A stretch of DNA of 64,000 nucleotides from a bacterium. GTDB lineage: Bacteria > SZUA-79 > Acidulodesulfobacterales > Acidulodesulfobacteraceae. Shown piece by piece: positions 9,122 to 32,415 of this stretch. Within the stretch, counting starts at the first letter, position 1, and the number at the start of each line of letters is the position of its first letter. The position numbers and the translations under genes were made by a program. The notes under the pieces were generated by a model, which ran no database searches, was not told the DNA's origin, and saw only the letters and a program-made list of their open reading frames with translations. Location: contig JAKAFU010000001.1 of the NCBI GenBank assembly GCA_021825865.1, positions 57,444 through 121,443 of the forward strand. The letters run 5' to 3'.

Positions 9122-9124
9122 TTA

Positions 9125-9451: not shown

Positions 9452-9478
9452 TATACGTTATTATTCAGAACTTATAAA

Positions 9479-13327: not shown

Positions 13328-15916
<2,589 letters not shown>

Positions 15917-16645: not shown

Positions 16646-16661
16646 TGTCCATTTTGGGACA
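16646..16661 (+). promoter_or_regulatory. Dyad TGTCC-N6-GGACA, candidate enhancer (UAS) for the sigma-54 activator
   Basis: Read directly: TGTCCATTTTGGGACA, about 125 bp upstream of the -24 GG at 16779. A one-mismatch copy (TGTTC-N6-GGACA) lies upstream of the second sigma-54 promoter. Confidence 0.4.
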
Positions 16662-16777
16662 CTATATATTGCGCCTAATCGTACTATTTAGTTTAATTAA
16701 AGCAATTTAATCCGAGAAATTATTTTTAAATTAAATCATTATAGATACTTATAAAAACAGTGCATTATTTTTATATT

Positions 16778-16792
16778 TGGCATTATATTTGC
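16778..16792 (+). promoter_or_regulatory. Sigma-54 (-24/-12) promoter
   Basis: TGGCAT-TATAT-TTGC, against consensus TGGCAC-N5-TTGC. GG-to-GC spacing is correct. It lies 78 bp upstream of the thioredoxin-like gene start (16870). Confidence 0.6.
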
Positions 16793-16869
16793 TAATATAT
16801 AAAAAAGCAATACATTATTAGATATTGTTAGAAAATTAAGATAAAATCTAATTTTTAATAAAGGACAAA

Positions 16870-17373
16870 ATGAAAATTTTAATATTATTGATTATGACTT
16901 TTAACTTTTTAGTTATGCAAAATGCATATGCTCAAAATATACCAAAATTTCAAAAAATTAAATGGATAGGTTTTAAAAAGGCTATTTTTTTAAATAATAA
17001 AATTAAAAAACCATTTTTTTTAGAATTTTATGCGCCTTATTGCGATTATTGTATTCAAATGGACAAAAGAGTATTTTATAAAAAAAAAGTGATAAAAATT
17101 ATTAATAAATATTTTTATCCGGTCAAAATTAACATTGAAGGAAATAAAACGGTAAAATTTTTTAATGGAAAAATTTATAGTAAAAAGCTATTATCTATAA
17201 AACTCAATGTTATGGGGACACCGACGGCAATTTTTTACAGTTCAGGGTTAAAAAAAATTTTTACTCTGCCGGGTTATTGGAATGAAGATGATTTTGTTTT
17301 AGTTACCAGATGGATAGCAAAGAAAAAATATAAAATAGAGTCATTGCGTAAATACTACAAGGAGACAAAGTAA
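16870..17373 (+). CDS. Periplasmic thioredoxin-fold protein (SoxW-like / Thioredoxin_7-like)
   Basis: 167 aa. Signal peptide ..VMQNAYA|Q, redox motif FYAPYCDYCIQM (CxxC), and ..GTPTAIFY.. (the cis-Pro region of the Trx fold). Confidence 0.7.
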   Translation: MKILILLIMTFNFLVMQNAYAQNIPKFQKIKWIGFKKAIFLNNKIKKPFFLEFYAPYCDYCIQMDKRVFYKKKVIKIINKYFYPVKINIEGNKTVKFFNGKIYSKKLLSIKLNVMGTPTAIFYSSGLKKIFTLPGYWNEDDFVLVTRWIAKKKYKIESLRKYYKETK

Positions 17374-17826
17374 ATGGGGAAAATAATAAATTATTGTAAA
17401 ATTAAGAATTTGTTCTTACTATATGTATTAATATCTATGGCGGTTATCTTATGCTCCGTTAAAATTTCTTTTGCTCTTAAATCTCCAAAAACTCTTAGCG
17501 AAGCAATAAAAACAGGCAGAGCGTATTTTTTTAAACCTTACGGTGTAAACGGCAAATCTTGTGCGACATGCCATTTATTAGATAAGAATGTAAAAAAAGG
17601 TAAAATAACTATAAAAGCTATAAAAGGTATCGCTAGATTTTTTCCTAAATGGAAAAACAATAAAATTTATACACTAAAGGAGCAATTGGTGCACTGTATT
17701 GTTTATGGAGAAAACGGTTTTAGACCTAAAAAAGATTCTAATATCATAAAATATCTAGATTTTTACCTATATTACTTGTCTAATGGTTATAGAATAAAAG
17801 TTATCCCATCTAAAAACACGCATTAA
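17374..17826 (+). CDS. Monohaem c-type cytochrome, SoxA-like
   Basis: 150 aa. N-terminal hydrophobic signal, a single CXXCH (SCATCH, His67), and a conserved-looking ..TLKEQLVHCIVYGENG.. with Cys108 lying 41 residues after the haem His. Its start abuts the stop of the upstream Trx-like gene. Confidence 0.6.
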   Translation: MGKIINYCKIKNLFLLYVLISMAVILCSVKISFALKSPKTLSEAIKTGRAYFFKPYGVNGKSCATCHLLDKNVKKGKITIKAIKGIARFFPKWKNNKIYTLKEQLVHCIVYGENGFRPKKDSNIIKYLDFYLYYLSNGYRIKVIPSKNTH

Positions 17827-17883
17827 TAACGTTAGTATTTTATAATATAATTAAAATATACAATTATAATTAGAGGTTTTTGT

Positions 17884-18366
17884 ATGTATATATTTTTAAA
17901 ATTTATATTGTTGTTACTAATTTCTTTTTCTGTTGTATCAATTTACAGCAGAAATGCTTTTTCTTCAACTAATCAAAAAATAAACACGGTTTCTTATTTT
18001 CAGCATAAGACACTAAAAGAATTATATGTGGTGTCGCAGAATCCTAAAAAATGGCCGTTGCTTTTATCCGATATAAGCAACGCAATTATTTATTCTAACA
18101 GATATTTTTTTAGATATAAGATTATTGTAGTTGGTTACGGCCCCGGAGGAATTAAATTTTTTATGAATAAGTATGATAAAAAAAATTATCCCACCATTCA
18201 GAGTTTTCACACTTACGGCGTTAAATTTGTTACATGCCATTTGACCATGAAAACATTAGGTATAAAAAAATCGCATCTGTTCAAATTTGTAAAAATCGCT
18301 TATCCCGGTGCCGTTTTTTATATATTTAAATTGAAAAGCCAAGGATATGTTAATATTAATTATTAG
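17884..18366 (+). CDS. DsrE/DsrF-like (COG1416-type) protein with signal peptide, paralogue A
   Basis: 160 aa. Signal peptide ..SRNAFS|S, and core ..YKIIVVGYGPGGIKFF...YGVKFVTCHLTMKTLGIKK..L..FVKIAYPGAVFYIFKLKSQGY... Roughly 50% identical by eye to the ORF at 28807..29280. Confidence 0.6.
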   Translation: MYIFLKFILLLLISFSVVSIYSRNAFSSTNQKINTVSYFQHKTLKELYVVSQNPKKWPLLLSDISNAIIYSNRYFFRYKIIVVGYGPGGIKFFMNKYDKKNYPTIQSFHTYGVKFVTCHLTMKTLGIKKSHLFKFVKIAYPGAVFYIFKLKSQGYVNINY

Positions 18367-18478
18367 TTCGAAACTGTTAAAAGCATTAAAGTCAAATTGC
18401 TGCATTTGCAGTTCCTGAATATCTATTAAAATTTTAATTAATGAATAATAATAATTCATTTTATTTATAAGGAGACGA

Positions 18479-20164
18479 ATGCTTATTACCTTGAAATCCC
18501 GTTTATATTTTGGCTCGGTTATTATTTTTTTAATTATTTCAATTATTTTTTTTTTCATTCTACGGTATGTTTATTTTTTAAGAAGCGCTTCTTATAATCA
18601 AGAAGCAATAAGTCTTACCTCAATTTCGTTAGTAAAAATCCAAAGGAATGTTCTAAATATAATAAGCTTAGAACATATAGAGAAATATAAAAAAGAAATA
18701 GCAAAATTGAGGAATAAACCGTTTGATAGTAATGTAATCAGCTTGCAGATAGAAAAAATTATAAGAAATACAAAAGAAATTCAAAAAGAGAACATGCTTT
18801 CTCTTAACGGGTACGTTGACGGATTTAAAAAAGAAAAATTCATTTCTATTTTTGGAATAAAAAAATCATTACTGAGAAGGTATAAAAATAAAAAAATAAA
18901 TTTAAAACTAAAAATGTTAAGGAAAGAATTGCTGTCTCATAGAAAAGTCCTTTTTAAAATTACAAGCAATCCGTCCCGTTACGGTTTAATTTATTCTCCA
19001 TCATATATAAAAAAAATGATGAATCCGACTATTAAAAGCGTAGAAGATATAGGTGCGGTGATAACTAAAAAAGTTGCGGATAAAATAAAAGTTTTGTATT
19101 TCAGTTTTATAATAATTCCATTTTTTCTGTTGATAATTCTATTTTTAACCAGTGTATATTTTAAGAAATCTTTCGTTGATAAACTTGAAATAGTAATAAA
19201 AAAAATAAAAGATATAGCGCAAGGAGATTTAATGCAGAAAATAAATATTGTCATGAATCCAAAAAATGAGATTGGAGCCTTAGTAATGCATGTAAATACA
19301 TTAATAGAATCTTTAATAGCAAATGTCAAAAGTATTAAAAAAACTTCATCAAATCTTTCCACCCATGGTGAAGAATTATCAGATTCGTCCAGAGAACTTG
19401 ATAATAATATAAATATTATGAAAACAAAAACTATCGCAATTATTGATTCTATAAAACAGATAAGTTCAGCGGTGGTTGAGATTGCAAAAAATATTTCATC
19501 GGCTAATACTATTGTTAAAAATACTCAGGAAGAAACGGGAAAAGGAACTGATTTAGTTAAAAATGTTATTTCTGAAATGAAGTATATAGATAATGAAGTA
19601 ATAATTGTAAACGATGCAATAAAAGATCTCGGAGTGTCATCTGAAAAGATTGGAGAAATAACGGTTGTTATTGATGAAATTGCCGACCAAACTAATCTTC
19701 TTGCTCTTAATGCAGCAATTGAAGCGGCTAGAGCCGGAGAACAAGGAAGAGGATTTGCAGTTGTGGCAGATGAGGTAAGAAAATTAGCCGAAAGAACAAC
19801 AAAAGCAACAAAAGAAATTACTAACATGATAGTTACGTTGCAGAATGATGTTGCAAAAGCCGTTAAATCAATAGAAGCCGGACGAAATAAAGTATTAAAA
19901 GGGGTGGATGCAGCAAATCTTGCAGGAAACTCAATAGATGAAATAAAATCTTTGGTCGATATGGTTACCGATATGATTACAAGAATTGCGGCGGCAACAG
20001 AAGAACAATCAAATATTTTGGAAGAAATATCCGCCTCGTCTGAATCTATTATGCTTGAGCAAGAGAAAAGCTTAAATACGGGAAAATTGGTTGATATATC
20101 TTCATCGGAGCTGTCTCAGTTATCAATGGCATTAAATAAACAAATCGGAATTTATAAAATATGA
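18479..20164 (+). CDS. Methyl-accepting chemotaxis protein (2 TM, periplasmic sensor domain, HAMP, MA domain)
   Basis: 561 aa. RBS AAGGAG upstream. TM1 ..[15 protein letters not shown].., TM2 ..[19 protein letters not shown].., HAMP ..[12 protein letters not shown]...NEIGAL... Highly conserved signalling hairpin ..[43 protein letters not shown]... Confidence 0.9.
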
Positions 20165-20225
20165 TAATGAAATATTTATATAATTATTAATTAATAGTTA
20201 TGCATATATATACATAACATAAAAT

Positions 20226-21623
20226 ATGCTGAAATTTATAAACGATATTAGCTTAAGAACTAAACTCCTTTTTTCATCTTTTGTTGTCTTATTTTTTATA
20301 ATGATTACCGTTAACTCTATTGCTTTGTACACAATTTATGCTACGCTTGTTTATAGAAATACTTTAAGGAATAATGCACGGAAAAAAATGTGCGTATCGC
20401 AACTAAAATTTTCATTATTGCATAAAGATATTACATCTATAAAAAATATTTTTTATGAAACCCATAAGAATAGGTATATTAACTATCTATATATCAGCAT
20501 ATTAAAAAATAATAAGATAGGCATAAAACATCGGCTTTATTTTGGCTTATATAATGAAAAATTAATAAAAAATATTCCTCCGAATTTAATAAAGCACGAT
20601 AATAAAATCATAGGAAAAGTTTATGTACAATTTAATATTAAAAAAGAATTGCAGTTAATAAGACTAAGGGTTTTTTGGGTTGCGATGAGGTTTTATCTTA
20701 TAAGTTTTATTTTTATATGCATAGGTCTTGTCATATTTTATTTTATAATATCTAAAATTACAGAGCCTCTTTTATTACTTAAAAGCAACATGACGAAAGT
20801 ATCCAATGGAGATTATTCAGTTCATATACAACCTAGTTCTAAAGATGAAATTGGAAGTTTAGCTGATATTTTTAATTCTATGATTAAAAATATAAAAGGA
20901 TATATTAATAAAATAGATTTAATTAGTAAAGAAAGGGAGCAATTAAATTGCATGGCACAGATGGGAGAAATGTCTAGTATGGTAGCGCATGAGATTAAAA
21001 ATGCAGCTTATGTTATTAACTCTAGTAATAAATATATAAAAAATAATCTTCATGCTAAAGATAAAAATTTGATAGAATTTATTAATATTATAGAAGAGGA
21101 ACTAAAAAGACTTAATAATATGACTGTAGGTTTTATGAATTTTGCAAAACAAAGAGAACCAAAATTAGCCGACATTAACTTGAATTATATAATAAATGAA
21201 TCACTCCAGATATTAAATTATGAAATAAAAAATGTCAATATAAAAATTATAAAACAGTTAGATAATTCTATCGGATTAATAAAAGGCGATAAGGAATTAT
21301 TAAAGCAGGTTATTATTAATTTGCTTATTAACGCAATGGATGCAGTTAGCAACGTAAACGACCCTGTGATAAAAATAATAAGTTCTACAGTACATAAAAA
21401 AGATGAAATATCAATAAGCATATCGGATAATGGAGAAGGTATAAAAATTTTGAATATAAATAACGTATTTAAACCCTTTTTTACAACTAAGAAAAGCGGA
21501 ACCGGTTTAGGGCTTGCTATATCTTCAAGAATTGTACTTTTGCATAAAGGATTAATTAAAACTGAAAGAATAGATGGATTTACTGTTTTTACAGTTATAC
21601 TCCCAAGGCGGATAATTTTATAA
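20226..21623 (+). CDS. Sensor histidine kinase (TM-sensor-TM-HAMP-HisKA-HATPase), NtrB/AtoS-like
   Basis: 465 aa. HAMP ..VSNGDYSVHIQPSSKDEIGSLADIFNSM.., H-box ..MSSMVAHEIKNA.., N box ..NLLINAMDA.., G boxes ..DNGEGI.., ..GTGLGLAIS... Confidence 0.88.
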   Translation: MLKFINDISLRTKLLFSSFVVLFFIMITVNSIALYTIYATLVYRNTLRNNARKKMCVSQLKFSLLHKDITSIKNIFYETHKNRYINYLYISILKNNKIGIKHRLYFGLYNEKLIKNIPPNLIKHDNKIIGKVYVQFNIKKELQLIRLRVFWVAMRFYLISFIFICIGLVIFYFIISKITEPLLLLKSNMTKVSNGDYSVHIQPSSKDEIGSLADIFNSMIKNIKGYINKIDLISKEREQLNCMAQMGEMSSMVAHEIKNAAYVINSSNKYIKNNLHAKDKNLIEFINIIEEELKRLNNMTVGFMNFAKQREPKLADINLNYIINESLQILNYEIKNVNIKIIKQLDNSIGLIKGDKELLKQVIINLLINAMDAVSNVNDPVIKIISSTVHKKDEISISISDNGEGIKILNINNVFKPFFTTKKSGTGLGLAISSRIVLLHKGLIKTERIDGFTVFTVILPRRIIL

Positions 21624-21660
21624 TATTTTACTTTATTATACTTTAAGTTAATTTTATATC

Positions 21661-23007
21661 ATGAGCAGAATACTTTTAATTGACGACGAGAAAAATATTT
21701 TAAAAACTGTCGGTTCAAATCTTGAACAAAACGGTTTTAATGTTGATGCAGCCATTAGCGCAGAGGTTGCCCTTGCAAAGTTGGACAGCAATAACTATGA
21801 TGTGATACTTTGCGATTTAATATTAACAGGGATGAACGGATTAGATTTCTTGAGTCTTGTAAGAAATACTAATAAAGATATTATATTTATAATGATTACG
21901 GCAAACGGTTTTATTGACGATGCTGTTAAGGCAATCAAAATAGGAGCCGATGATTTCATAAGCAAACCGATAGATATGGACGGCTTAATTAGTAATATAA
22001 ACATTTTGCTAAGCAAAAAGGCAAACTATTACAATGAAAATAAACCGCAATTTGACACTAAGTTGATTTACAAATCTAAAATTATGGAAGATTTGATTAA
22101 AGAAATAGGAATGATTGCTAAGGCTCCTTCAAATATTCTAATAACGGGCGAAACAGGTACCGGCAAGGAATTAATAGCAAAAATTATTCATGAAATATCA
22201 GGAAGAAAAGGACCTTTTGTCGGAATTAATATTAACGCATACCCTGATAGTTTAATAGAAAATGAACTTTTCGGTCATGCAAAAGGGTCATTTACAAACG
22301 CCATAAACACACAAAAAGGAAAATTCGAACTTGCGTCCAACGGAACATTGTTTTTAGATGAAATTGGAGAAATGCCGTTGTTTGTTCAGTCAAAATTGTT
22401 AAGAATATTGCAGGAGCGTGAATTTTCAATGATAGGTTCTAATGCTGTCATAAAACTGACTGCAAGAATTGTAAGTGCAACAAATATTAACATAGAAAGT
22501 GCCGTATTGCAGAATCAATTTAGAGAAGACTTGTTTTATAGGATAAATGTATTTCATGTAAAGGTCCCTCCGCTCAGGGAACGGAAAGACGATATCATGC
22601 CGCTTGTGTATTATTTTATAAAAAGATTTAATGCGGAAAACAAAAAGAATATAGTTAGTATATCAAAAGATGTTGAAGAAAAATTAATGCAATATAATTT
22701 TCCGGGCAATATAAGGGAACTTGAAAATATAATTGAGAGAGCTATTATCATTACTCCTTTTGATACCATTGAAGTAGATAATTTACCAAATTATTTAAAA
22801 AAAACAAGAGAAGTCCAGTCTATTTTTATGTCTTCCAATAATAATACAGATTATGATTTAAATTTGGATTCGGTAGAAAAAGAACTTATAATTAAGGCAC
22901 TTGAAAAATATAATTATAATCAGACAAAAACAGCTGCTTCTATCGGTATATCCAGAAAACAACTACGAACTAAAATGAAAAAATACGACCTTTTTAATAA
23001 ACGATAG
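21661..23007 (+). CDS. Sigma-54-dependent response regulator (REC-AAA+-Fis HTH; NtrC family bEBP)
   Basis: 448 aa. Receiver ..ILLIDDE..DVILCDLILTGMNG.., Walker A GETGTGKE, loop-1 GSFTNA (variant of GAFTGA), ..LFLDEIGEM.., ..RLNVFHVKVPPLRERKDDI.., C-terminal HTH ..NQTKTAASIGISRKQLRTKMKKY... Confidence 0.93.
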   Translation: MSRILLIDDEKNILKTVGSNLEQNGFNVDAAISAEVALAKLDSNNYDVILCDLILTGMNGLDFLSLVRNTNKDIIFIMITANGFIDDAVKAIKIGADDFISKPIDMDGLISNINILLSKKANYYNENKPQFDTKLIYKSKIMEDLIKEIGMIAKAPSNILITGETGTGKELIAKIIHEISGRKGPFVGININAYPDSLIENELFGHAKGSFTNAINTQKGKFELASNGTLFLDEIGEMPLFVQSKLLRILQEREFSMIGSNAVIKLTARIVSATNINIESAVLQNQFREDLFYRINVFHVKVPPLRERKDDIMPLVYYFIKRFNAENKKNIVSISKDVEEKLMQYNFPGNIRELENIIERAIIITPFDTIEVDNLPNYLKKTREVQSIFMSSNNNTDYDLNLDSVEKELIIKALEKYNYNQTKTAASIGISRKQLRTKMKKYDLFNKR

Positions 23008-23118
23008 ATTATTTTAAATCTAAAATTTAACGGTTGTCGCAAATTAAACTTGATTTTAATTTTTAATAAATAAGGTCGAGCCGATTGGTATCTGGAAAAG
23101 TCCTTTTGTGCACTATAT

Positions 23119-23134
23119 TGTTCTTGTATGGACA
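23119..23134 (+). promoter_or_regulatory. Dyad TGTTC-N6-GGACA, candidate enhancer (UAS) for the sigma-54 activator
   Basis: Read directly: TGTTCTTGTATGGACA, about 72 bp upstream of the -24 GG at 23198. The adjacent ATGGACAATT (23128..23137) is the reverse complement of AATTGTCCAT at 16643..16652. Confidence 0.4.
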
Positions 23135-23196
23135 ATTAATTCTCCTAAAAACAATTGATAGTCGATATAAATCTGGAACTATGCATAATCTTATTA

Positions 23197-23211
23197 TGGC
23201 ACGGTATTTGC
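23197..23211 (+). promoter_or_regulatory. Sigma-54 (-24/-12) promoter, perfect consensus
   Basis: TGGCAC-GGTAT-TTGC read directly. It lies 118 bp upstream of the OMP start (23329) and immediately downstream of the bEBP gene. Confidence 0.7.
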
Positions 23212-23328
23212 TATATATATTCTGCAGTATATAACTATAACTGTGATAAATTTTATTTATTATTAAAAATAAATTTATTATTGTATATTTGTTTAATTAT
23301 TTTCGCATAAAATTCACAGGAGGAGAGG

Positions 23329-25089
23329 ATGCGATTGAAATCAATCTGTATTGGTGCGGTAATATTTTATTTTTTGGTATACTTATGCAATCCTGTTACC
23401 GTGTTTGCAATTAAGCTTAAAAAACAGCAAATTAAACCGCCGCATAGCGGTCTTAGTTTTATGCTTGGAGGCAGGTATATAGGCGCGGCTCTTTATGCCG
23501 AGAATCAAGGGCAAGGATTTCAAAATGTTTCAGGATATCCGAATAATAATTCATTTCAAGAATTTGCCCAAATGTTAAGGGTTAATACATTAATTAAATA
23601 TAAAAAACTTATAAGTTTATATACCCAGTTTGCACTTTCAAGCGATTATAACGGCATTGCAAACTATTATGGCGGAATTCCCCCTGGATTCCAAACGCTG
23701 GCTCAAAATCCTGTGCCGGTCGGTTTTAATAATGATTTTGATACATTTGGCATTAGAGAAGTTTATATTAATTTAAGATTGCCAAATCAATATTTCAGAC
23801 ATATTATATTTGGCAGAACATTTTTGCATTTTGGTCTCGGAGTAGCTATAAGAACAGATGTTGATGGTATATTTGATAATTTTAATGTCGGCAATTTTAA
23901 TATAACCGCAGGTACCATGATAACATCGATGGCAGCTGCCGGGACATATTGTTATTCTTCAAACAAACTCAATCCTTGTAACACATTGCAAGGACTTGCC
24001 GGAACAACCGAAGGGTTTTATCCGACCTCTGCCATGGGCTATACCCATGTGCAAATGGGAACAATCCCTGTGATTCAATTCATAACAAAAAAACCCGTAA
24101 GGCATACGATTTTTAGCGCATGGTTTTCAGAGGCGCATCTTAATCAATTTCAGGCTCCGTTATATAATGTGCCAAATTCTGTTTATTTTCAAACATTTGG
24201 TTCATATACTAACGACAATAATTTTTGGCCTACCCTTAACATTACTTTGGCGGGCGGTTCGTTATGGTATGAAAACGGCAAAAATAAGCTTGCGATTGAA
24301 TTTGATTATCTCAGAGGTAAAGCTATGCCGACGTCGGCTGCTTTGTCTGATGGACTGCTTAATAGTCGCTCCGCTAATCATTATTTATGGACCCAGTGGG
24401 GAGGAGCTAACCCGAATTCTCCGCTGACTGCTCCTTTGCTGGTTGAACCGGCAGGCAACAATGCTTACGACACTATTAATTCATACGATATTTATGCCAA
24501 AGGCTCAACATTAACGAGCATTAAAAAGATGCCTCTTATGATAGGATTTAAATTTGGGCTTGGTGCTCCGGTAGAGGCAGGTTCATATGACATGTCCGAT
24601 TATTCAAGGGTTCAAAATCAACCTACTTTATTTGGCAATCTTATAACTTCTAACTGGCAGATGATACAGATACTCGCCCCCGGAAATAGTTATATGTATG
24701 GTGCACCGTTGTCTTCCAATCTGGAAAACAAAAGAATTGAAGAGATTTTATTCAGAGAGTTTTTACCTGATAAAAATAATTTAACTGAAGCTGTGATACA
24801 GGCTAACTGGGTAAAATCAAATATACATGTAAACGGCAAATATGTTCCTCTTTTTGGCGGAAGCAACATAGGAACAGAATTTGACCTCGATTTTGTGCAT
24901 GTTATTAAAAAAGGTTTTTTCTGGAAAGCTTGGGCGTCTTATATGTTCACAGGAAGAGGACTTGAGACATTTTATGGTCCGGGTAATTATTCGTCCGGCT
25001 GCGTAACTAGTGCTTCAACCGCATGCTTAGATACTGCGACGCATAAAAATATAGCTGCAGTAGGCACTGCTATTGTATGGAATTTTTAA
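23329..25089 (+). CDS. Predicted outer-membrane beta-barrel protein / porin of unrecognised family
   Basis: 586 aa. RBS AGGAGG. Signal peptide ..NPVTVFA|I. Gly/Asn/Tyr/aromatic-rich alternating composition. C-terminal ..GTAIVWNF (terminal Phe, the OMP sorting signature). Confidence 0.55.
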   Translation: MRLKSICIGAVIFYFLVYLCNPVTVFAIKLKKQQIKPPHSGLSFMLGGRYIGAALYAENQGQGFQNVSGYPNNNSFQEFAQMLRVNTLIKYKKLISLYTQFALSSDYNGIANYYGGIPPGFQTLAQNPVPVGFNNDFDTFGIREVYINLRLPNQYFRHIIFGRTFLHFGLGVAIRTDVDGIFDNFNVGNFNITAGTMITSMAAAGTYCYSSNKLNPCNTLQGLAGTTEGFYPTSAMGYTHVQMGTIPVIQFITKKPVRHTIFSAWFSEAHLNQFQAPLYNVPNSVYFQTFGSYTNDNNFWPTLNITLAGGSLWYENGKNKLAIEFDYLRGKAMPTSAALSDGLLNSRSANHYLWTQWGGANPNSPLTAPLLVEPAGNNAYDTINSYDIYAKGSTLTSIKKMPLMIGFKFGLGAPVEAGSYDMSDYSRVQNQPTLFGNLITSNWQMIQILAPGNSYMYGAPLSSNLENKRIEEILFREFLPDKNNLTEAVIQANWVKSNIHVNGKYVPLFGGSNIGTEFDLDFVHVIKKGFFWKAWASYMFTGRGLETFYGPGNYSSGCVTSASTACLDTATHKNIAAVGTAIVWNF

Positions 25090-25236
25090 TTTATTTAATA
25101 TATTATTGAAAGTTTTAAATCAAGTGTAAAAGAATGACAATATCTTATACGAAACATATGTGATTTAATCAAGTTTTCTATGTATACGATTTTAATTAAT
25201 AAAAAATAATTTTAACATTAAGGAGATTACGATATC

Positions 25237-25800
25237 ATGAACAAAAATATTAGGCAGTTTGCCGATGACGGCGAGAAGATAGTATTAAATACAAATAAAA
25301 TAACAAGAAGGGATTTTATAAAAAAAACAATTTTAACGACTGCTTTGACGATAGGAGCAAGTTCAATATTGAATGTTCCGAGAGATTCTTTTGCCAAAAG
25401 CATTTCACTTAAGCCGGTTAAGATGAAAACAAATTATGTTAAAACCATTAATGGGAAAGAAGTAAAGTGGATTGCTAATCCGACTGCCGAAGAAAAATTG
25501 CTGATTCCAAAAATAAGTCTCCCATTAATTGCGCAGGACGGGGCTATGGTGCCGATAAAAATGGAAGCCAAAAAGCCGCAAACCGACAATTTATATTTAA
25601 AAACTTTTTATATATGCGATTTAAATAATCCGCACCTATTGTTGGGTTCATTTGACTTGACGCCATTTAACGGTAAAGCGTATATTTCTACCAGAATAAA
25701 ATTGATGCAAGAGTCATATGTTCAGGTTCTGGCAGAATATTCCAATAATGAAGTTTATGGTGCAAGGAAACTTGTTAAAGTGACCGTAGGAGGATGCTGA
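25237..25800 (+). CDS. soxY: Sulfur-carrier protein SoxY (Tat-exported)
   Basis: 187 aa. Twin-arginine signal ..KITRRDFIKKTILTTAL... Immunoglobulin-like body. C-terminal swinging arm ..KLVKVTVGGC followed by TGA. Directly upstream of soxZ. Confidence 0.85.
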   Translation: MNKNIRQFADDGEKIVLNTNKITRRDFIKKTILTTALTIGASSILNVPRDSFAKSISLKPVKMKTNYVKTINGKEVKWIANPTAEEKLLIPKISLPLIAQDGAMVPIKMEAKKPQTDNLYLKTFYICDLNNPHLLLGSFDLTPFNGKAYISTRIKLMQESYVQVLAEYSNNEVYGARKLVKVTVGGC

Positions 25801-25886
25801 TTTTATTTTAAAAAATGTAAAATAATCAAAAAATTTTAACTTAGTTAATTAAAATCATGTATTTTTAATAAAATGAGGGATCAAAA

Positions 25887-26216
25887 ATGAAAATTGGAAC
25901 GATAATGGTAAGGGTGCCGAGAAAAGTAAAAAAAGGAAAAAATTTTAAAGTTTTAACTTTAACAGAACATCCTATGAATACAGGGCTTGTGAAAAATTCT
26001 AAAACAGGTAAAATTATACCCGAATGGATAATTAATAAAGTTAATATATTCTATGATAAAAAATTGATAACAACATGTAATTACGGCATAGGAATTGCGG
26101 CAAATCCTTTTTTAGCGTTTTATGTAAAGGCTGAAAAAAGTGCACCGTTAGATTTTGTAATGCATGACAACAAAGGCAATGTATATAAAAAATCTGTTCT
26201 GATAAATGTTTATTAA
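25887..26216 (+). CDS. soxZ: SoxZ, partner of SoxY
   Basis: 109 aa. ..VRVPRKVKKGKNFKVLTLTEHPMNTGLVKNSKTGKIIPEWII..ANPFLAFYVKA.. matches the SoxZ pattern (..HPMETG..G..IP..). Confidence 0.85.
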   Translation: MKIGTIMVRVPRKVKKGKNFKVLTLTEHPMNTGLVKNSKTGKIIPEWIINKVNIFYDKKLITTCNYGIGIAANPFLAFYVKAEKSAPLDFVMHDNKGNVYKKSVLINVY

Positions 26217-26240
26217 CTATATTACAATTACGGAGATTCA

Positions 26241-26726
26241 ATGAAAAAATTTATTGTTTTATTTTTATTTGTAATTATTTATTGCGGAGGTTCGGTCAAC
26301 AATGTTTTTGCTTTAAGTAAAAATAATAATAAAGCATTTTATATATTAAAAATAAAAAAGAGGTTTAAAGATGTTGTCTTCAATTTAAAGCAATCCATAA
26401 TAAATGATAATTATGTTATAGTTTCAGTAAATCCTATTTCTCAAGGTATACAAGGCATAGGAAAAAAAATATCAAAATTAGATGTCATTGAATTTTGTAA
26501 TTTATCTTACGCATACGATATTCTAAACGGCAATAAAAATTATGCGGCTTTTATGCCATGCAGAGTCGCTGTATATAAACAAGGAAAATATGTAGTTATT
26601 ATAGGATTTTTACCATCCTTTGCACTTAAATTTTTTAAAAATAATACTCCTATGATGAAAAAAACAGCATTGAAAGTAAGTCGTCAGATGGTGAGCATTA
26701 TAAATTCAGTAAAAGATGGTTTTTAA
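26241..26726 (+). CDS. DUF302-domain protein with signal peptide
   Basis: 161 aa. Signal ..VNNVFA|L. ..AAFMPCRVAVYKQGKYVVI.. resembles the DUF302 core motif (..lPCrv.vye..g..). Confidence 0.65.
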   Translation: MKKFIVLFLFVIIYCGGSVNNVFALSKNNNKAFYILKIKKRFKDVVFNLKQSIINDNYVIVSVNPISQGIQGIGKKISKLDVIEFCNLSYAYDILNGNKNYAAFMPCRVAVYKQGKYVVIIGFLPSFALKFFKNNTPMMKKTALKVSRQMVSIINSVKDGF

Positions 26727-26904
26727 AAAATTTATTAACATTAGGTTAGGCAATATATATTTTATGAATGTTAGCAGATTGATGCATAGACTATAAACAA
26801 TTAAGTTCTTAATCATGGTTGCTATGAAATTTTTAAGATAAAATAATAAAATTTTCTGTTTTATTTCATTTTAATTCAATTTATTAATGGAGATATAAAA
26901 AGCC

Positions 26905-28593
26905 ATGGAAAATACTGTTACAAGAAGAGATTTTTTAAAAAAAACTGCACTCCTTACAGGCTATTTAGCGATTAATCCTGTAAATTTGCTTAAGTATAAG
27001 CCTGTAGGGAATCTCACTATCATTTGGAATTCAGATTCCCATGCGCATTTAAAACCGGTATTGTATAGGGAACCGTCAGTAAATATAGGTCCTAAAATCA
27101 TGAACGGCAGACCCGGTCATTTAGTCGGAGATTCTTTCTGTCTGTATTATGATATAAACCCAAAGTCGGCTATGGGATATTTTTGTTCTTACAAAAATTT
27201 TAATAACCTATCTAAGGAATATGGACCTATGGGCGGATATGCTCATATGAGCACGGTAATAAATAAAATTAGGGATGAAAGATATGGCAAAACTATATTA
27301 CTTGATACCGGCGATTCATGGCAAGGAACCGGCATTGCTCTTTTGACGAAAGGAAAGGCTGTCTATACTGTTCAAAATGCGATGGGTTATGACGCAATGA
27401 CCGGGCATTGGGAATTTACTTACGGAAAGGAACAATTGCTGGAAAATATAAAAAATCTAAATTTCCCTTTTATTGCCCAGAATGTAAAAAATGCAACATG
27501 GGGAAATTTAATTTTTAAACCATATATTATAAAGGAAGTTAATGGGCTAAGAGTGGGTATAATCGGACAGGCATTCCCGTATGTTCCGCTTGCGCACCCG
27601 GCTCATTTTGTCGAAGGGTGGTCATTTGGCATAGATACCCACCATGCCCAAAAAATGGTAGATCAATTAAAAAATACTGAAAAAGTTGATATCGTAGTTG
27701 TACTTTCACATAACGGACTTGAAGTTGATAGAAAATTTGCAGCTTTAATTAAGGGCATAGATGTAATTGTGGGAGGTCATACCCATGATATTCTTCCAGC
27801 ACCTGAAATTATAAACAATACCATAATAGTTCAGGCAGGAACCCATGGAAAATTTATCGGAAGATTAGATTTAAATGTTTCAAATAAAAAAATTACGGCT
27901 TATGACCATAAGCTTATACCTATTGTCTCAAATTGGATTAAACCGGATCCTAAAATTACGCAGGTCATAGAAGACGAATTTAAACCCTATAATAATATAT
28001 TAAATGAGAAATTAGGGACGACGGAAAGTCTATTATACAGGCGGGCCACATTTATCAGTACGGTTGATAACGTTGCAGAGCAGGCTTTTATAGAAAAATT
28101 TGATGCTCCATTGTTTTTTGCCCCCGGTTGGCGTTGGGGGGAAACTTTGCTTCCAGGTTCCGATATTACTATGGAAAATGTTTATGGCGAATATGGAACA
28201 ACTTATCCTGAGGTTTACAAAACCCTTCTTACGGGAAAACAGTTATTATTATCGCAATTAAGTGTTCTGAGCGATGTTTTTGCGAAAGATGCTTATTTAC
28301 AGATGGGCGGAGACGCCACCCGTGTCTCCAATTCAAAATTTCATATACATATAAATGAATCATTTAATAAGAGAATCAAAAGCTGGGAAATTAACGGAAA
28401 ACCATTAAATTTGAATAAAAAATACTGGGCTGTATCAACAGGCGGAAAAATGCAAAACATGAACTCAGATGATAAAGGGTTAACAAAATTTAAAGCATGC
28501 GATGTTATTGCAGAATACATCAGAAATCATAAAATTATTCAATCAATCCAAACGGAAAAAGTTATATATCGCAAATCGCCAACCGCCGGTTAA
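26905..28593 (+). CDS. soxB: Thiosulfohydrolase SoxB (Tat-exported di-metal phosphoesterase / 5'-nucleotidase fold)
   Basis: 562 aa. Tat signal ..VTRRDFLKKTALLTG... Metallophosphoesterase motifs ..NSDSHAH.., ..TGDSWQGTG.., ..GHWEFTYG.., ..LSHNG.., ..GGHTHD... C-terminal 5'-nucleotidase-like domain. Confidence 0.9.
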   Translation: MENTVTRRDFLKKTALLTGYLAINPVNLLKYKPVGNLTIIWNSDSHAHLKPVLYREPSVNIGPKIMNGRPGHLVGDSFCLYYDINPKSAMGYFCSYKNFNNLSKEYGPMGGYAHMSTVINKIRDERYGKTILLDTGDSWQGTGIALLTKGKAVYTVQNAMGYDAMTGHWEFTYGKEQLLENIKNLNFPFIAQNVKNATWGNLIFKPYIIKEVNGLRVGIIGQAFPYVPLAHPAHFVEGWSFGIDTHHAQKMVDQLKNTEKVDIVVVLSHNGLEVDRKFAALIKGIDVIVGGHTHDILPAPEIINNTIIVQAGTHGKFIGRLDLNVSNKKITAYDHKLIPIVSNWIKPDPKITQVIEDEFKPYNNILNEKLGTTESLLYRRATFISTVDNVAEQAFIEKFDAPLFFAPGWRWGETLLPGSDITMENVYGEYGTTYPEVYKTLLTGKQLLLSQLSVLSDVFAKDAYLQMGGDATRVSNSKFHIHINESFNKRIKSWEINGKPLNLNKKYWAVSTGGKMQNMNSDDKGLTKFKACDVIAEYIRNHKIIQSIQTEKVIYRKSPTAG

Positions 28594-28806
28594 TACAATG
28601 CATCAAATATATTTATTAATAATGCCATCTTCCATCGAAGCGGTTTATTGCTGAATAAAATTGGCTAACTTGCGATTATTATTTACATACCGTAATTAGA
28701 CTGATAGTAAAATTAAATCAAATAAATAAAAATTATTTATAAATGTTGCATGCTGCTATATCATTCAATATTGGCTTTTATAACTAAATGATACCAGGAG
28801 AAAATT

Positions 28807-29280
28807 ATGAAAAATATATTAAATATAGTTGTTTGTGTGTTCTTCACCATTTTTTTAACTTTTGTATTTATACAAAATTCATATGCAAGAGTTAAAGACA
28901 TAAATGCGTTGAAATATTTTAAACATCATAAATTGAAAGAACTTTATCAGGTACCTCAAAATCCAAAATATTGGAGTTTATTATTGAATAATATTTCAAA
29001 CAACGTTAGAATTTCAGACACGCATTTTATTAATTATAAAATTCTTGTGGTAGCTTACGGTCCTGCTCTTAAACTTTTTATGAAATCTGACAAAAAATAT
29101 TATCCATTACTTCAGAGTATTGCCAGCTATGGCGTGAAATTAGTAGCATGCCATCAAACAATGTTAGGTATGCATGTAAAAAAATCGCAAATTTTTAAAT
29201 TTGTGCATATTGTTTATCCGGGTGCAATATTTTACATTGTACAAAAAGAAAATGAAGGCTATGCGTATCTGCAGCCGTAA
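28807..29280 (+). CDS. DsrE/DsrF-like (COG1416-type) protein with signal peptide, paralogue B
   Basis: 157 aa. Signal ..QNSYA|R. Core ..YKILVVAYGPALKLF...YGVKLVACHQTMLGMHVKK..FVHIVYPGAIFYIVQKENEGYAYLQP. Paralogue of 17884..18366. Confidence 0.6.
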   Translation: MKNILNIVVCVFFTIFLTFVFIQNSYARVKDINALKYFKHHKLKELYQVPQNPKYWSLLLNNISNNVRISDTHFINYKILVVAYGPALKLFMKSDKKYYPLLQSIASYGVKLVACHQTMLGMHVKKSQIFKFVHIVYPGAIFYIVQKENEGYAYLQP

Positions 29281-29316
29281 AAATAATTAAAATTAATTAA
29301 TTTTAATTATTTTTAC
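29277..29316. repeat. 40-bp perfect A/T-rich palindrome overlapping the stop codon of the DsrE-like gene. Possible weak bidirectional terminator or binding site.
   Basis: GTAAAAATAATTAAAATTAATTAATTTTAATTATTTTTAC equals its own reverse complement (checked base by base). Confidence 0.45.
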
Positions 29317-29480: not shown

Positions 29481-30158
29481 ATGAGCAAAATAAAAAATAA
29501 TGACGAATTTATTTTAAAAGTAAACGATATTTTTTACAGTATTCAGGGAGAATCTTCATTTGCGGGCTCCCCCTGTTTTTTTGTAAGACTGGCAGGATGC
29601 AATATAAGATGTCCGTATTGCGACACAAAAGAAGCGCTGACGGATACAAACGCAAAATCAATGCATATCGGCGATATTATGACAGAAATAATAAAATGCG
29701 GCGAAAATGTAAAATTAGTGGAAATAACGGGCGGAGAACCTTTAATACAGAAAGGCGTTTATGAATTAATGAAAAGATTTTTAAATTTAAAATATACCGT
29801 GCTTGTTGAAACAAACGGCACGCTCAGTCTTAAAAGTATCCCGGATAAAGTCGTTAAAATAATGGATATAAAATGCCCGTCAAGCGGATATGCAAATTAT
29901 AACAATTTTGAAAATCTAAATTATATCAATAAAAACGATGAATTAAAATTTATTATAGGAAACACCGCAGATTATGAATTTGCTAAGAATTTTATAAACG
30001 TAAACAGAAAAATCATCAAAACGGAAAAAATAATATTCGGCGCTGTAGATGTCGCCGAAAATCAATTTTCACCGCATATTTTAGCCGAAAAGATTTTATC
30101 TGACAGGCTAAATGTTAAAATAGGATTACAGCTGCATAAATTCCTCGATTTGAAGTAG
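29481..30158 (+). CDS. queE: 7-carboxy-7-deazaguanine synthase QueE (radical SAM)
   Basis: 225 aa. ..FYSIQGESSFAGSPCFFVRLAGCNIRCPYCDT.. (CX3CX2C cluster plus the QueE N-terminal motif), ..EITGGEPL... Confidence 0.85.
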   Translation: MSKIKNNDEFILKVNDIFYSIQGESSFAGSPCFFVRLAGCNIRCPYCDTKEALTDTNAKSMHIGDIMTEIIKCGENVKLVEITGGEPLIQKGVYELMKRFLNLKYTVLVETNGTLSLKSIPDKVVKIMDIKCPSSGYANYNNFENLNYINKNDELKFIIGNTADYEFAKNFINVNRKIIKTEKIIFGAVDVAENQFSPHILAEKILSDRLNVKIGLQLHKFLDLK

Positions 30159-30211
30159 TTTTTGGCTTTTTTTATATATAGTTCTAAATCCTGTGATATA
30201 ATTAACAAATT

Positions 30212-31333
30212 ATGATTAGCGGACTATTTCTTTTTATTATTGTTATAGCTGTTTTAACGATTATTATCTCAATCATTATTGTTAAAAACAATATATATAT
30301 TCCTACCTTTTCAGGCGCTATAGCCGTCGCTTTCGGTATCATGATAAACGGGGCATTTCAGCAGGAGCATTTTTTAAAACGGTTAATAGGACCGTATGCG
30401 GTTTATTTATTGATTTCTGTATTAATTATTATTGTTTTAAGCAATTTAAACGAACTTCGTTCAAAAAAATATTATTTAAGCCATCATTTCTCAGATGAAA
30501 TACATACATTTGCAACCGGAACTTATGTGATTGCTTTTTTTACCGTTACCCTGTCAATTGTTAAAGAACTCGGCAATATATTAATATTAGCTTACATTTT
30601 ATTTATTGCAGGCTGTGTTATTTATTTGCTGTATTTGTTCATTTCCGTAAAGAATTATAAGGCAATATGGCAGGAAAATTATTCTAAAAAAATTCTTATG
30701 TATAATTTAAACGGGGTTATTCTTTTAATATCAGTAGCTACAAGCTATGTAGTTATAGACGGGAGTCTGCTTCTGGGAAAATTTTTCAGAGGAAGTGCGG
30801 ATAACATACTCCTGATTTTATCTGCATTATTTTATTTTGCAGGGTTATACATGATAATAAGAAATTATATAAAATATAAATATAAAATCATGGATAATTG
30901 GAAAATCGGTAATGTCATAGTACACGGCGCAATATCTACATTTGGTCTTGCCTGTGTTATTGCCGGATTCAGCAGTAATATTAATGGTCTGGTCTGGATA
31001 GCGGCCCTGCTCCTGTTTATTATAGTAGAAATTTATGAGATAATATTTATGATTAAAAGAATTAAATATTACGGCGTCGATAAAGGTGTCTTGACTTATT
31101 CAACAAATCAGTGGGCAAGAAATTTTACTTTCGGGATGTTCCTTGCATTTTCAATAATGTTTAAAATTAAAGATTCAGTATATTATAAAATTAACTTATT
31201 GGATTTTATTTATAATTTAATTTTTTCGTATGGCAAATATTTTGTAATAGGCTTTTTTATCGTTGAATTAATTGTATTTGCATATAATATCAACAGGTTA
31301 AATAAACCAAAAATATACGAGGGTGATGCTTGA
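30212..31333 (+). CDS. Polytopic membrane protein, family not recognised (about 10 TM)
   Basis: 373 aa, almost entirely hydrophobic segments separated by short basic loops. I can identify no diagnostic motif. Confidence 0.55.
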   Translation: MISGLFLFIIVIAVLTIIISIIIVKNNIYIPTFSGAIAVAFGIMINGAFQQEHFLKRLIGPYAVYLLISVLIIIVLSNLNELRSKKYYLSHHFSDEIHTFATGTYVIAFFTVTLSIVKELGNILILAYILFIAGCVIYLLYLFISVKNYKAIWQENYSKKILMYNLNGVILLISVATSYVVIDGSLLLGKFFRGSADNILLILSALFYFAGLYMIIRNYIKYKYKIMDNWKIGNVIVHGAISTFGLACVIAGFSSNINGLVWIAALLLFIIVEIYEIIFMIKRIKYYGVDKGVLTYSTNQWARNFTFGMFLAFSIMFKIKDSVYYKINLLDFIYNLIFSYGKYFVIGFFIVELIVFAYNINRLNKPKIYEGDA

Positions 31334-31587
31334 CTTCGTTTTTTTATAATTATATAATAAAAAATATATTATTAAATATTGGTAATATTTATTTTTATTT
31401 AAAATATGTTTATTATTATGTTTCCTGCCTTGCCTTATGATTATAAAACTGTAAAACTAAAACATTTATTTAAAAAAAAATAGAATATTAAATTTTTGTA
31501 TTTTTTATTATGCAGTCCTGATATATTTATTGTAATTTTTTTATAGTTATTTTGTTTATTAATTTAATGTTAATTTTAAGAGGAATT

Positions 31588-32415
31588 ATGATGGGAAAAT
31601 CACGTAAATTTACCGGTAATACGAAAAAAAGTTTGTTATCCGGAAATAAATATTTACTCGCTTCGCTGCGCGGTAAAACGTTCAGGATAATCGCTCTATT
31701 ATTATTTTTAGCAGTACCTGTTTTGGCTTTTTCCGGTTGCGCGTCAATGAGCGGCACTACCAGTTCAACCACGTCAACAAGCGGTATGAGCGCAGGCAAT
31801 ATGAACTTGCAGACAAAAATGAGTTCATCTATTTTTCTTCAGCCTGTTCCGCCGAGCGAAAAGGTAGTTTATGTAAGAGCCACAAATACAAGTTCCGCAT
31901 CGGGACTGAATTTTAAAACTGCTTTAGAACAGGCGTTAATTGCCAGAGGATACAGGATTACAAATAATCCTCAGGATGCTTATTTTATGCTTTTGTCAAA
32001 TGTATTATACCTCGGCAAAGAAACCCACGCTTACACTGCGGCAGGCGCATTGGCAGGAGGTTTCGGAGGAGCGTTGGTAGGTTCAAGATACGGTTCGGTC
32101 GGCAGCACTATCGGCGGCGGATTGGTAGGCGGACTTATAGGCGCTGCAATAGGTGCGGCATTTCAGCATAAAAAATACATGATGGTTGTTGATATCCAGC
32201 TGGAACAAAGACAGAAGGGCTCATATACGACTAACGGAACGGCGACATCTGAAGGATTAGGAAATACGACTACTACTTACAATGCAGGCGTTAAAAACTG
32301 GGCAATTTACAGAGACAGGGTTGTTGCTACGGCCAGCGCAATTAATCTAAGATTCAGCTCTGCAGAGCCGGCGTTAAAGACGGTTGTCGGAAGAGAAATT
32401 TCAAACTTATTATAA
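31588..32415 (+). CDS. traT: TraT-like outer-membrane lipoprotein (complement-resistance / surface-exclusion family)
   Basis: Start chosen at ATG 31588 behind RBS AAGAGGA (the ORF track begins 36 nt earlier). Lipobox ..VLAFSGC. It is collinear with F-plasmid TraT as I recall it: ..LQTKMSSSIFLQP...VYVRATNTS.., ..ARGYRITNNPQDAYFML.., the Gly-rich block ..GGFGGALVGS..GGGLVGGLIGAAIGAA.., ..YMMVVDIQLEQR.., and ..INLRFSSAEPALKTVVGREISNLL. Confidence 0.85.
   Translation: MMGKSRKFTGNTKKSLLSGNKYLLASLRGKTFRIIALLLFLAVPVLAFSGCASMSGTTSSTTSTSGMSAGNMNLQTKMSSSIFLQPVPPSEKVVYVRATNTSSASGLNFKTALEQALIARGYRITNNPQDAYFMLLSNVLYLGKETHAYTAAGALAGGFGGALVGSRYGSVGSTIGGGLVGGLIGAAIGAAFQHKKYMMVVDIQLEQRQKGSYTTNGTATSEGLGNTTTTYNAGVKNWAIYRDRVVATASAINLRFSSAEPALKTVVGREISNLL

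Follow-up and report, generated by a model that had tools for sequence, protein, structure and literature searches.

In Acidithiobacillus caldus and A. thiooxidans, genes for a histidine kinase (HK) and an NtrC-type activator stand beside a sox operon that lacks soxCD (sox-II, tspS-tspR-soxXYZA-hyp(DUF302)-soxB). The TspR enhancer of A. caldus sox-II is TGTCCCAAATGGGACA (review PMC6335251), an extracellular sCache_3_2 sensor domain was described for TspS (PMC12194929), and a DUF302 gene beside soxB (between soxA and soxB) is known from Acidithiobacillus, Thermithiobacillus, and Thiohalorhabdus (PMC5248467). Here, a sox locus was analyzed in a 64-kb stretch of bacterial DNA (GenBank assembly GCA_021825865.1, contig JAKAFU010000001.1, positions 57,444–121,443), and this whole stretch is called the window below. 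Taken as a whole, accessory steps included, the locus probably encodes a periplasmic oxidation of thiosulfate or sulfane sulfur that would proceed without SoxCD and SoxX under a sigma-54 switch of the TspS/TspR type. Its core, a regulated truncated Sox system, was considered likely to a similar degree.

Judged by protein identities, the host lineage is Ca. Acididesulfobacter/Acidulodesulfobacterium, an uncultured lineage of the GTDB phylum SZUA-79 (Ca. Acidulodesulfobacteriota), and the genome is closely related to Ca. A. guangdongensis. The best SoxB identities were 99% and 96%, to two metagenome-assembled genomes (MAGs), followed by 83% to Ca. A. diazotrophicus AP1 and 78% to Ca. Acidulodesulfobacterium sp. 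H_13; the values were 73–99% inside the phylum and at most 38% beyond it. The SoxA-like cytochrome of the locus (mini-SoxA) was 91% identical to a Ca. A. guangdongensis protein. The phylum is abundant and uncultured in acid mine drainage and hydrothermal sulfide communities, and it carries sulfur genes of both reductive and oxidative type. Acid mine drainage is the habitat of the MAG lineage (PMC6776010), and dsrAB, dsrEFH, and dsrL were reported for the phylum (PMC6776010, PMC12506266, PMC13500833). The MAG surveys list just soxA, soxB, soxY, and soxZ (PMC6776010, PMC12506266), and soxB transcripts were reported for MAGs of the group (PMC6776010). SoxCD was reported absent across the phylum (PMC6776010, PMC12506266, PMC13500833), and the 2026 survey, which places SZUA-79 among the Sox-bearing phyla without SoxCD, also noted sox clusters without soxX (PMC13500833). 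An earlier note on this DNA, made from the letters alone, had set the truncated Sox system apart from the textbook arrangement; in that respect the published SoxABYZ sets without SoxCD preceded it (PMC6776010, PMC12506266). The regulators, the DsrE-like genes, DUF302, and the outer membrane protein (OMP) gene are not described in these three papers (PMC6776010, PMC12506266, PMC13500833). Still new are a half-sized SoxA that lacks SoxX, the link between soxB and secreted DsrE-like proteins, a co-regulated OMP of an orphan family, and the occurrence of the TspR-type enhancer in an unrelated phylum.

Sequence analysis

The related loci (labeled L001 etc.) were retrieved via SoxB. Proteins were identified with Pfam, with NCBIfam/TIGR models and their equivalog cut-offs, and with profile matches to PDB structures. 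Sigma-54 promoters were searched over the 64 kb with the pattern TGGCAC-N5-TTGCW, allowing at most one mismatch. Operon ends were inferred from gene spacing and the absence of internal sigma-54 boxes, because the scans for sigma-70 promoters and terminators were uninformative in DNA of ~29% GC (96 found, 88 expected).

Promoters and enhancers of the sulfur operons

The locus consists of 12 open reading frames (ORFs) for sulfur and signaling proteins at 16.6–29.3 kb, all on the plus strand (Table 1). The earlier note had described a three-part layout, with two sulfur operons flanking a signaling cassette, and all 12 ORFs were found where it had placed them. Its view of a truncated, sensor-controlled Sox locus was likewise upheld by SoxY, SoxZ, SoxB, a SoxA-type heme protein, and sigma-54 promoters, and gene-neighborhood comparison identified the additional DsrE-like, DUF302, and OMP genes as conserved partners, not chance neighbors. 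The order from yidC across dnaA-dnaN-gyrB and tatA to the end of the sox region recurred in five other, independent assemblies (L001, L002, L086–L088), so the layout is real and not an assembly artefact. The six assemblies shared it at 83–99% protein identity, and all ORFs of the locus were full length.

Each of the two sulfur operons was headed by one sigma-54 box. The boxes at 16778 (P1) and 23197 (P2) were the only matches at one mismatch or fewer in the 64 kb, in agreement with the sigma-54 promoters proposed earlier on both sides of the cassette, and no further box was found inside either operon. Upstream of each box lies a palindromic upstream activating sequence (UAS). The copy at 16646, TGTCCATTTTGGGACA, was the sole perfect TGTCC-N6-GGACA in the 64 kb, and its half-sites and spacing are identical to those of the published A. 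caldus TspR site. Pairs of UAS and promoter occurred twice in the window and not once in 300 Markov-simulated windows. A UAS copy with one mismatch was also seen at 29610 within the radical-SAM gene downstream of the locus, probably by chance.

The arrangement of enhancer and promoter was kept in every related locus from which the upstream region was recovered, with the UAS motif counted in 12 related loci. A UAS and a sigma-54-like box precede the sox operon in L003, L006–L011, L013, L016, L017, and L086, and the OMP operon in L001, L002, and L086, where UAS 2 and P2 are kept at the same place. In several relatives, the UAS is doubled, with copies 33 nt apart (L007 6311/6344, L008 6698/6731, L016 5233/5266, L017 6739/6772) or 22 nt apart (L006 4558/4580), at 66–156 nt upstream of the sigma-54 box. 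The spacing of 33 nt equals three helical turns, and the tandem layout suggests that activator dimers bind cooperatively. On the match of half-sites and spacing, the range of the predicted TspR-type enhancer is extended from the Acidithiobacillia to an unrelated phylum of the same habitat.

Table 1. Positions of the regulatory sites and genes of the sox locus in the 64-kb window
Feature	Position	Strand	Basis and details
UAS 1, TGTCCATTTTGGGACA	16646..16661	.	perfect TGTCC-N6-GGACA, 117 nt upstream of the P1 -24 box
Predicted sigma-54 promoter P1, TGGCATTATATTTGCT (-24/-12)	16778..16793	+	77 nt upstream of the Trx start codon
Secreted thioredoxin (Trx)-fold CxxC protein, Cys58/Cys61	16870..17373	+	PF13098, DsbD/DsbH-like similarity, PDB 4fyb
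Mini-SoxA, 150-aa monoheme SoxA/TsdA-type cytochrome	17374..17826	+	PF21342; CATCH Cys63-His67, putative axial Cys108
DsrE-like 1, COG1416 type, single Cys118	17884..18366	+	weak Pfam DsrE matches, signal peptide
Methyl-accepting chemotaxis protein (MCP), two transmembrane (TM) helices, ~175-aa periplasmic domain of no known family	18479..20164	+	PF00015 E 7e-48, weak HAMP
Histidine kinase, 2 TM, ~125-aa periplasmic domain, HAMP-HisKA-HATPase_c	20226..21623	+	Pfam and TM prediction
NtrC-family sigma-54 activator (bacterial enhancer-binding protein, bEBP), REC-AAA+-HTH_8	21661..23007	+	PF00158 E 2e-62, REC, HTH_8
UAS 2, TGTTCTTGTATGGACA	23119..23134	.	1 mismatch, 63 nt upstream of the P2 -24 box
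Predicted sigma-54 promoter P2, TGGCACGGTATTTGCT	23197..23212	+	perfect match, 117 nt upstream of the OMP start codon
586-aa secreted protein, putative OMP beta-barrel, orphan family	23329..25089	+	signal peptide
SoxY carrier, twin-arginine translocation (Tat) signal	25237..25800	+	PF13501 E 6e-24
SoxZ	25887..26216	+	TIGR04490 81.6 bits, above cut-off 76
Secreted DUF302 protein, immediately upstream of soxB	26241..26726	+	PF03625, PDB 1q9u
SoxB thiosulfohydrolase, Tat signal	26905..28593	+	TIGR04486 637.1 bits, cut-off 550
DsrE-like 2, COG1416 type, single mature Cys115	28807..29280	+	PF02635; MTH1491 (1l1s) E 5e-6, signal peptide

Signaling cassette

The nearest NCBIfam models were AtoS/ZraS for the kinase and AtoC/NtrC/ZraR for the activator, in both cases below the cut-offs. 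In eight relatives that are more distant, the sox operon is immediately preceded by genes for homologues of the pair, at 37–44% identity for the kinase and 52–57% for the activator. For the MCP (TM segments 9–27 and 205–223), homologues of 43–44% identity were encoded next to the kinase and activator genes in L008 and L016, and the periplasmic part of the MCP matched no Pfam sensor family. A sensor domain common to the MCP and the kinase was considered and rejected, as BLASTP found no similarity between them and neither has a Pfam sensor.

The cassette might control something else, such as motility or another sigma-54 regulon, and stand between the sulfur operons by coincidence. Such a role could be suspected from the MCP, which has no recognizable sulfur-related sensor and no similarity to the sensor of the kinase, and from two relatives in which the sox operon has no HK-bEBP nearby (L003, L007). 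However, a palindromic enhancer paired with a sigma-54 promoter was found at both flanking operons and nowhere else in the window, the adjacency of HK-bEBP to sox recurs across the phylum, and L007 has kept the UAS and the sigma-54 promoter even without regulators close by. The probability left for coincidence is next to negligible, and sigma-54 control of the sox genes by the cassette is preferred. The wiring of the locus, set apart from the textbook arrangement in the earlier note, is of a known kind, with the palindrome and sigma-54 promoter of A. caldus and DUF302 beside soxB (PMC6335251, PMC5248467).

SoxYZ, SoxB, and accessory periplasmic proteins

SoxB exceeded its equivalog cut-off, as did SoxZ (Table 1); SoxY, with 84.5 bits on TIGR04488, fell short of its cut-off of 125. 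The SoxY C-terminus reads ...VTVGGC, with the Cys present and the trailing GG of the canonical GGCGG absent. Twin-arginine motifs (TRRDF[IL]KKT) were found in SoxY and SoxB, and one N-terminal hydrophobic segment each in the Trx-fold protein, mini-SoxA, both DsrE-like proteins, the DUF302 protein, and the 586-aa protein. SoxZ has no export signal, which is usual for this protein. The predicted export signals fit a periplasmic pathway. A tatA gene adjoins the locus in divergent orientation.

The DUF302 gene precedes soxB in most related loci and is missing from the L010 locus. The Trx-fold protein is a putative functional analogue of SoxW/SoxS or of the DsbD gamma domain on the basis of its fold and CxxC motif; its gene is the first or second of the relatives' sox operon and is often preceded there by ccdA. 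In the window, ccdA/soxV, SoxA module a (see below), and rhodanese genes were looked for and none was found. The earlier description of the locus as self-contained was thus not sustained: the window has neither an electron-accepting cytochrome nor a reductant importer of the CcdA/SoxV type, and relatives carry ccdA in the operon.

Mini-SoxA and the absent Sox partners

Mini-SoxA reached 44.5 bits on TIGR04484, where the cut-off is 110, and covered positions 94–207 of the 212 in the model. In a search against PDB, a profile of its family matched SoxA structures with E 7e-15 (2c1d) and 5e-14, and TsdA with 1e-6. Cys108 aligns with the heme-ligand Cys of SoxA in 1h31 (...RGCI...) and 2c1d (...VGCV...). 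The nine best fold matches of an AlphaFold2 (AF2) model built from 21 sequences were all SoxA or TsdA (E 0.014–0.07); this search is supportive only, because the predicted local distance difference test (pLDDT) score of the model was just 65. A profile search of 5.8 billion proteins confined the module family to the phylum, apart from a marginal match to a Marinobacter SoxA.

Mini-SoxA aligns to module b of the fused diheme SoxA of relatives, and three states of SoxA were observed among the loci. In the first, SoxA is a fused diheme protein of 270 aa (L004, L005, L008, L011), which in L008 scored 138.8 bits on the equivalog model with its cut-off of 110. In the second, the two monoheme modules are separate genes with a DsrE-like gene between them (L003, L007, L019), and in the third, module b stands alone (L009, L010, L013, and the clade of the window). 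By alignment, the states are a natural series of domain fission and loss in one phylum, and mini-SoxA is the surviving C-terminal His/Cys heme module of a once-diheme SoxA, with its ligation predicted. The description "SoxA-like monoheme cytochrome" in the earlier note was thus correct in that there is one heme module, but the protein is a remnant of a diheme SoxA, a form that sister lineages have kept whole.

Only one credible CxxCH ORF was present in the 64 kb, so the window has no soxX or soxD. No SoxC or other molybdoenzyme was found by Pfam among the 20 largest remaining ORFs, which were housekeeping or unrelated genes near the chromosomal origin (mnmG, mnmE, yidC, dnaA, dnaN, gyrB, rib genes, tRNA synthetases). 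Both results bear out the statement of the earlier note that no soxX or soxCD is recognizable in the window. No SoxX candidate was found among the ORFs listed for the relatives L007 and L010.

Such losses could also be read as decay: the Sox system would be degraded, with mini-SoxA as a decaying remnant and with SoxYZ-SoxB either inactive or in need of a SoxAX encoded elsewhere, and the split of the locus would be a side effect of genome rearrangement with no functional meaning. The series from fused to split to single-module SoxA would suit this, as would the low score of mini-SoxA on the equivalog model and the absence from the window of three genes that relatives have (ccdA, SoxA module a, and a third DsrE copy). 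On the other side, the single module is intact in two genera at 35–40% identity and has kept its CxxCH, axial Cys, and signal peptide, which argues for purifying selection on module b; an intact UAS and sigma-54 promoter of their own precede the relocated genes, and in the six assemblies of identical layout the ORFs are unbroken. Decay was accordingly considered very unlikely, and a functional, truncated Sox system is preferred.

Secreted DsrE-like proteins

The two DsrE-like proteins are 45% identical to each other and similar to two solved COG1416 proteins (1l1s and 2pd2), whose conserved Cys aligns with theirs. This Cys, part of a C-x-x-T-M motif, was invariant in 11 DsrE-like sequences. 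A DsrE-like gene lies directly 3' of soxB in 13 of the 13 relatives with downstream sequence. DsrE-like 1 is orthologous to the copy after soxB in L006, L009, L010, and L013, and DsrE-like 2 to the copy after soxA in other loci. Per locus, relatives encode as many as three secreted paralogues, including a lipoprotein. Partners of the F or H type, as in DsrEFH/TusBCD, were not found in the locus, and all DsrE-like copies have signal peptides. To our knowledge, COG1416 proteins have no established function.

Secreted DsrE-like proteins of ~145 aa are widespread (754 matches) and are annotated just as "DsrE family protein". A general linkage of such proteins to sox was rejected, as the three proteobacterial contexts checked were all unrelated to sox. 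In MAGs of Ectothiorhodospiraceae/Thioalkalispiraceae (L024–L026, L030), a gene for a secreted COG1416 DsrE-like protein immediately precedes that of a SoxB paralogue as a recurring two-gene module, and soxYZ was not found close by; the paralogues of L026 and L030 scored 327–372 bits on TIGR04486, below the cut-off of 550.

The 586-aa protein

The first gene behind P2 encodes a protein with no internal hydrophobic helix and the C-terminus ...VWNF. It has no Pfam family, and a profile of five homologues gave no PDB match at E ≤ 10. A word-indexed homologue search returned only the protein itself, and just seven relatives turned up when 1.84 billion representative proteins were searched exhaustively with HMMER. 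Two homologues (P0142 and the OMP of L010) had sub-threshold matches to the C-terminal part of Alginate_exp (PF13372, E 0.0018 and 0.09); the protein of the window had none. A single-sequence AF2 model was unusable (pLDDT 31). Homologues of 38–41% identity adjoin HK-bEBP in L009, L010, and L017, which are loci of the Acidulodesulfobacterium type.

In L010 (H_13), genes for a secreted tandem rhodanese, a 446-aa multiheme cytochrome c, and a TetR regulator (42–5727) precede the OMP-HK-bEBP-sox block, and ccdA with a TlpA-like thioredoxin follows it (13552–14921).

Gene order in the phylum

In other genera, the sox genes form one contiguous block, (ccdA)-Trx-soxY-soxZ-(DUF302)-soxB-DsrE-soxA-DsrE-(DsrE), preceded by (OMP)-HK-bEBP-(MCP, opposite strand)-[UAS, sigma-54]. 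Trx, soxA, and one DsrE gene stand upstream of MCP-HK-bEBP with their own enhancer and promoter only in the Ca. A. guangdongensis-like clade. Gene order thus indicates that the two-operon split is a derived rearrangement of an ancestral contiguous operon, in which Trx, soxA (module b), and one DsrE would have moved across the regulators and carried along a copy of the UAS and promoter. The earlier note had taken the split around the signaling cassette as a design feature; this does not hold, as it is a rearrangement of one clade, and other members of the phylum keep a contiguous block with HK-bEBP upstream. As to whether the gene order is common and characterized, the order itself is clade-specific, but the gene content had already been noted in MAG studies at the level of annotation, and the wiring is of a known kind.

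Proposed pathway and substrate

In the proposed pathway, the kinase would sense a reduced sulfur compound in the periplasm, most likely thiosulfate on the A. caldus model, and phosphorylate the NtrC-type activator, which would bind the TGTCC-N6-GGACA palindromes at 16646 and 23119 and open P1 and P2. P1 would drive Trx, mini-SoxA, and DsrE-like 1, and P2 the OMP gene, soxY, soxZ, DUF302, soxB, and DsrE-like 2. Since no terminator or sigma-54 box follows the left operon, transcription from P1 may also extend into MCP-HK-bEBP, and the regulators would then be under their own positive control.

The substrate would cross the outer membrane, possibly via the orphan OMP as an entry or exit channel. 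Single-module SoxA would then link thiosulfate oxidatively to the C-terminal Cys of SoxY, presumably without SoxX, and SoxB would release sulfate by hydrolysis, as in established Sox biochemistry. Without SoxCD, the sulfane sulfur would stay on SoxY. The DsrE-like proteins are the best candidates for taking over the persulfide and might forward the sulfur to S0/polysulfide or to the Dsr machinery of the cell; that they relay sulfane sulfur from SoxY is, at this stage, a tentative possibility. The Trx-fold protein may hold the carrier cysteines reduced, as SoxS and SoxW do, and the MCP may couple taxis to the same resource.

Several points weigh against this pathway. The inducer, the activity of the promoters, and each of the enzymatic steps are inferred. 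The window has no SoxX, canonical SoxA acts as a SoxAX heterodimer, and we know of no biochemical precedent for a lone SoxA module of ~115 residues. The Arg found four residues before the axial Cys in Rhodovulum and Paracoccus SoxA, which we take to be catalytic, aligns with a Gln in mini-SoxA. The kinase and activator would work like TspS and TspR, but this is a functional likeness; the pair is not equated with TspS/TspR, because sCache_3_2 was undetectable (no Pfam match at E ≤ 10 in the periplasmic segment of the window kinase and three homologues). In the wider family of secreted DsrE-like proteins, the majority do not have sox genes as neighbors, and the 586-aa protein is only tentatively an outer membrane barrel. 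The genes soxX, soxCD, and ccdA could lie elsewhere in the genome. Finally, given the instability of thiosulfate in strongly acidic water, another compound may be the natural substrate.

With another substrate, the same proteins would process sulfur from S0, polysulfide, or polythionates; the OMP and the DsrE-like proteins would load SoxY, and mini-SoxA would serve as an electron outlet or as a sulfane-activating heme. The absence of SoxX and of the Arg of solved SoxA proteins would be in keeping with such a route, and so would the several secreted DsrE paralogues per locus, the dedicated co-regulated OMP, the secreted tandem rhodanese near the L010 locus, and the acid mine drainage habitat (PMC6776010). 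Against it stands the constant presence of a bona fide SoxB, whose sole known reaction is the hydrolysis of SoxY-bound thiosulfonate. In addition, the regulator site matches that of the A. caldus system proposed to respond to thiosulfate, and Acidithiobacillus uses Sox on thiosulfate in equally acidic habitats (PMC6335251). This route was judged clearly unlikely, and the oxidation of thiosulfate or sulfane sulfur by a truncated Sox system under sigma-54 control is preferred.

A bolder version of the preferred pathway is a SoxX-independent minimal Sox cycle in this phylum, in which the ~115-residue His/Cys heme module would replace SoxAX. The role of SoxCD/SoxL would fall to a persulfide relay in the periplasm, made up of the secreted DsrE-like proteins, which would take the sulfane sulfur from SoxY and deliver it to the OMP or to Dsr. 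This version seems improbable on balance; if true, the relay would be the first function for COG1416 and the first periplasmic sulfur relay of the DsrE type. The locus raises the biochemical questions of whether half a SoxA molecule can act without SoxX, what the secreted COG1416 DsrE-like proteins do, and what the OMP carries. The Sox genes of the phylum appear as a conserved sigma-54/TspR-type unit with defined promoters and enhancers, which offers handles on the timing of sulfur oxidation.

Neighboring genes

DsrE-like 2 is followed on the plus strand (29481–32415) by genes for a radical-SAM protein (225 aa), a 373-aa polytopic membrane protein of no family, and a TraT-like lipoprotein. Both L001 and L002 have the radical-SAM and 373-aa genes at this place, and L002 also has the TraT-like gene. 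On the minus strand at 32627–33049, a 140-aa polytopic membrane protein matches positions 309–402 only of PF00115 (E 6e-11); either a fragment or a small protein of the COX1 type is conceivable, and no adjoining oxidase ORFs were found. A putative sulfite/sulfonate exporter of the TauE/SafE type (2753–3502, minus strand) adjoins a TolC-like efflux protein (1168–2595, minus strand). The pair may be relevant to sulfur, and no link to the sox regulon was found. A 1007-aa PAS-GAF-GGDEF-EAL protein (48596–51619, plus strand) is encoded amid housekeeping genes.

The chromosomal origin region was placed at 8800–10075 (flanks 1168–15916), where a stretch of 24% GC coincides with a sign change in GC skew. 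It is flanked by yidC-mnmE-mnmG on the minus strand and dnaA-dnaN-gyrB on the plus strand; in L086, rpmH-rnpA-yidD lie upstream of yidC. DnaA boxes of the E. coli type were not enriched at the origin (16 found, 18.6 expected).

Comparison with known systems

The locus shares with sox-II of A. caldus and A. thiooxidans an HK and NtrC-type activator beside a sox operon without soxCD, a sigma-54 promoter, the half-sites and spacing of TGTCC-N6-GGACA, and a DUF302 gene beside soxB (PMC6335251, PMC5248467, PMC12194929), and both occur in acidic, sulfur-rich habitats. In contrast to sox-II, the window has no soxX, and its SoxA is a single module encoded in a second operon; genes for secreted DsrE-like proteins, a Trx-fold protein, an orphan OMP, and an MCP are added. 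The window also belongs to another phylum, and its kinase has no recognizable sCache_3_2.

With the truncated Sox systems of Allochromatium, Chlorobi, and Aquificota, which act together with rDsr or sHdr, the locus has SoxYZ, SoxB, a SoxA-type cytochrome, and the lack of SoxCD in common. SoxX, or a fusion of SoxA and SoxX, is retained in those systems and is often accompanied by SoxK, whereas the window has no SoxX; their proposed sulfane acceptor is the rhodanese SoxL or sulfur globules, not a secreted DsrE-like protein, and their regulators differ from those of the window.

The DsrE-like proteins share similarity over the whole domain and the conserved Cys with the COG1416 branch of DsrE/TusD (MTH1491, 1l1s; ST0148, 2pd2). 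The solved COG1416 proteins and the DsrEFH, DsrE3, and TusBCD relays are cytoplasmic, whereas the proteins of the window are secreted and encoded in a periplasmic Sox operon.

The sister lineages (Ca. A. diazotrophicus AP1, Ca. Acidulodesulfobacterium sp. H_13, and related MAGs) carry the same protein families, with SoxB at 73–84% identity, the same UAS and sigma-54 promoter, and a DsrE-like gene after soxB. Their sox genes form one block, and SoxA is a fused diheme protein or split in two in several of them, whereas in the window the OMP gene heads the operon of soxY, soxZ, and soxB.

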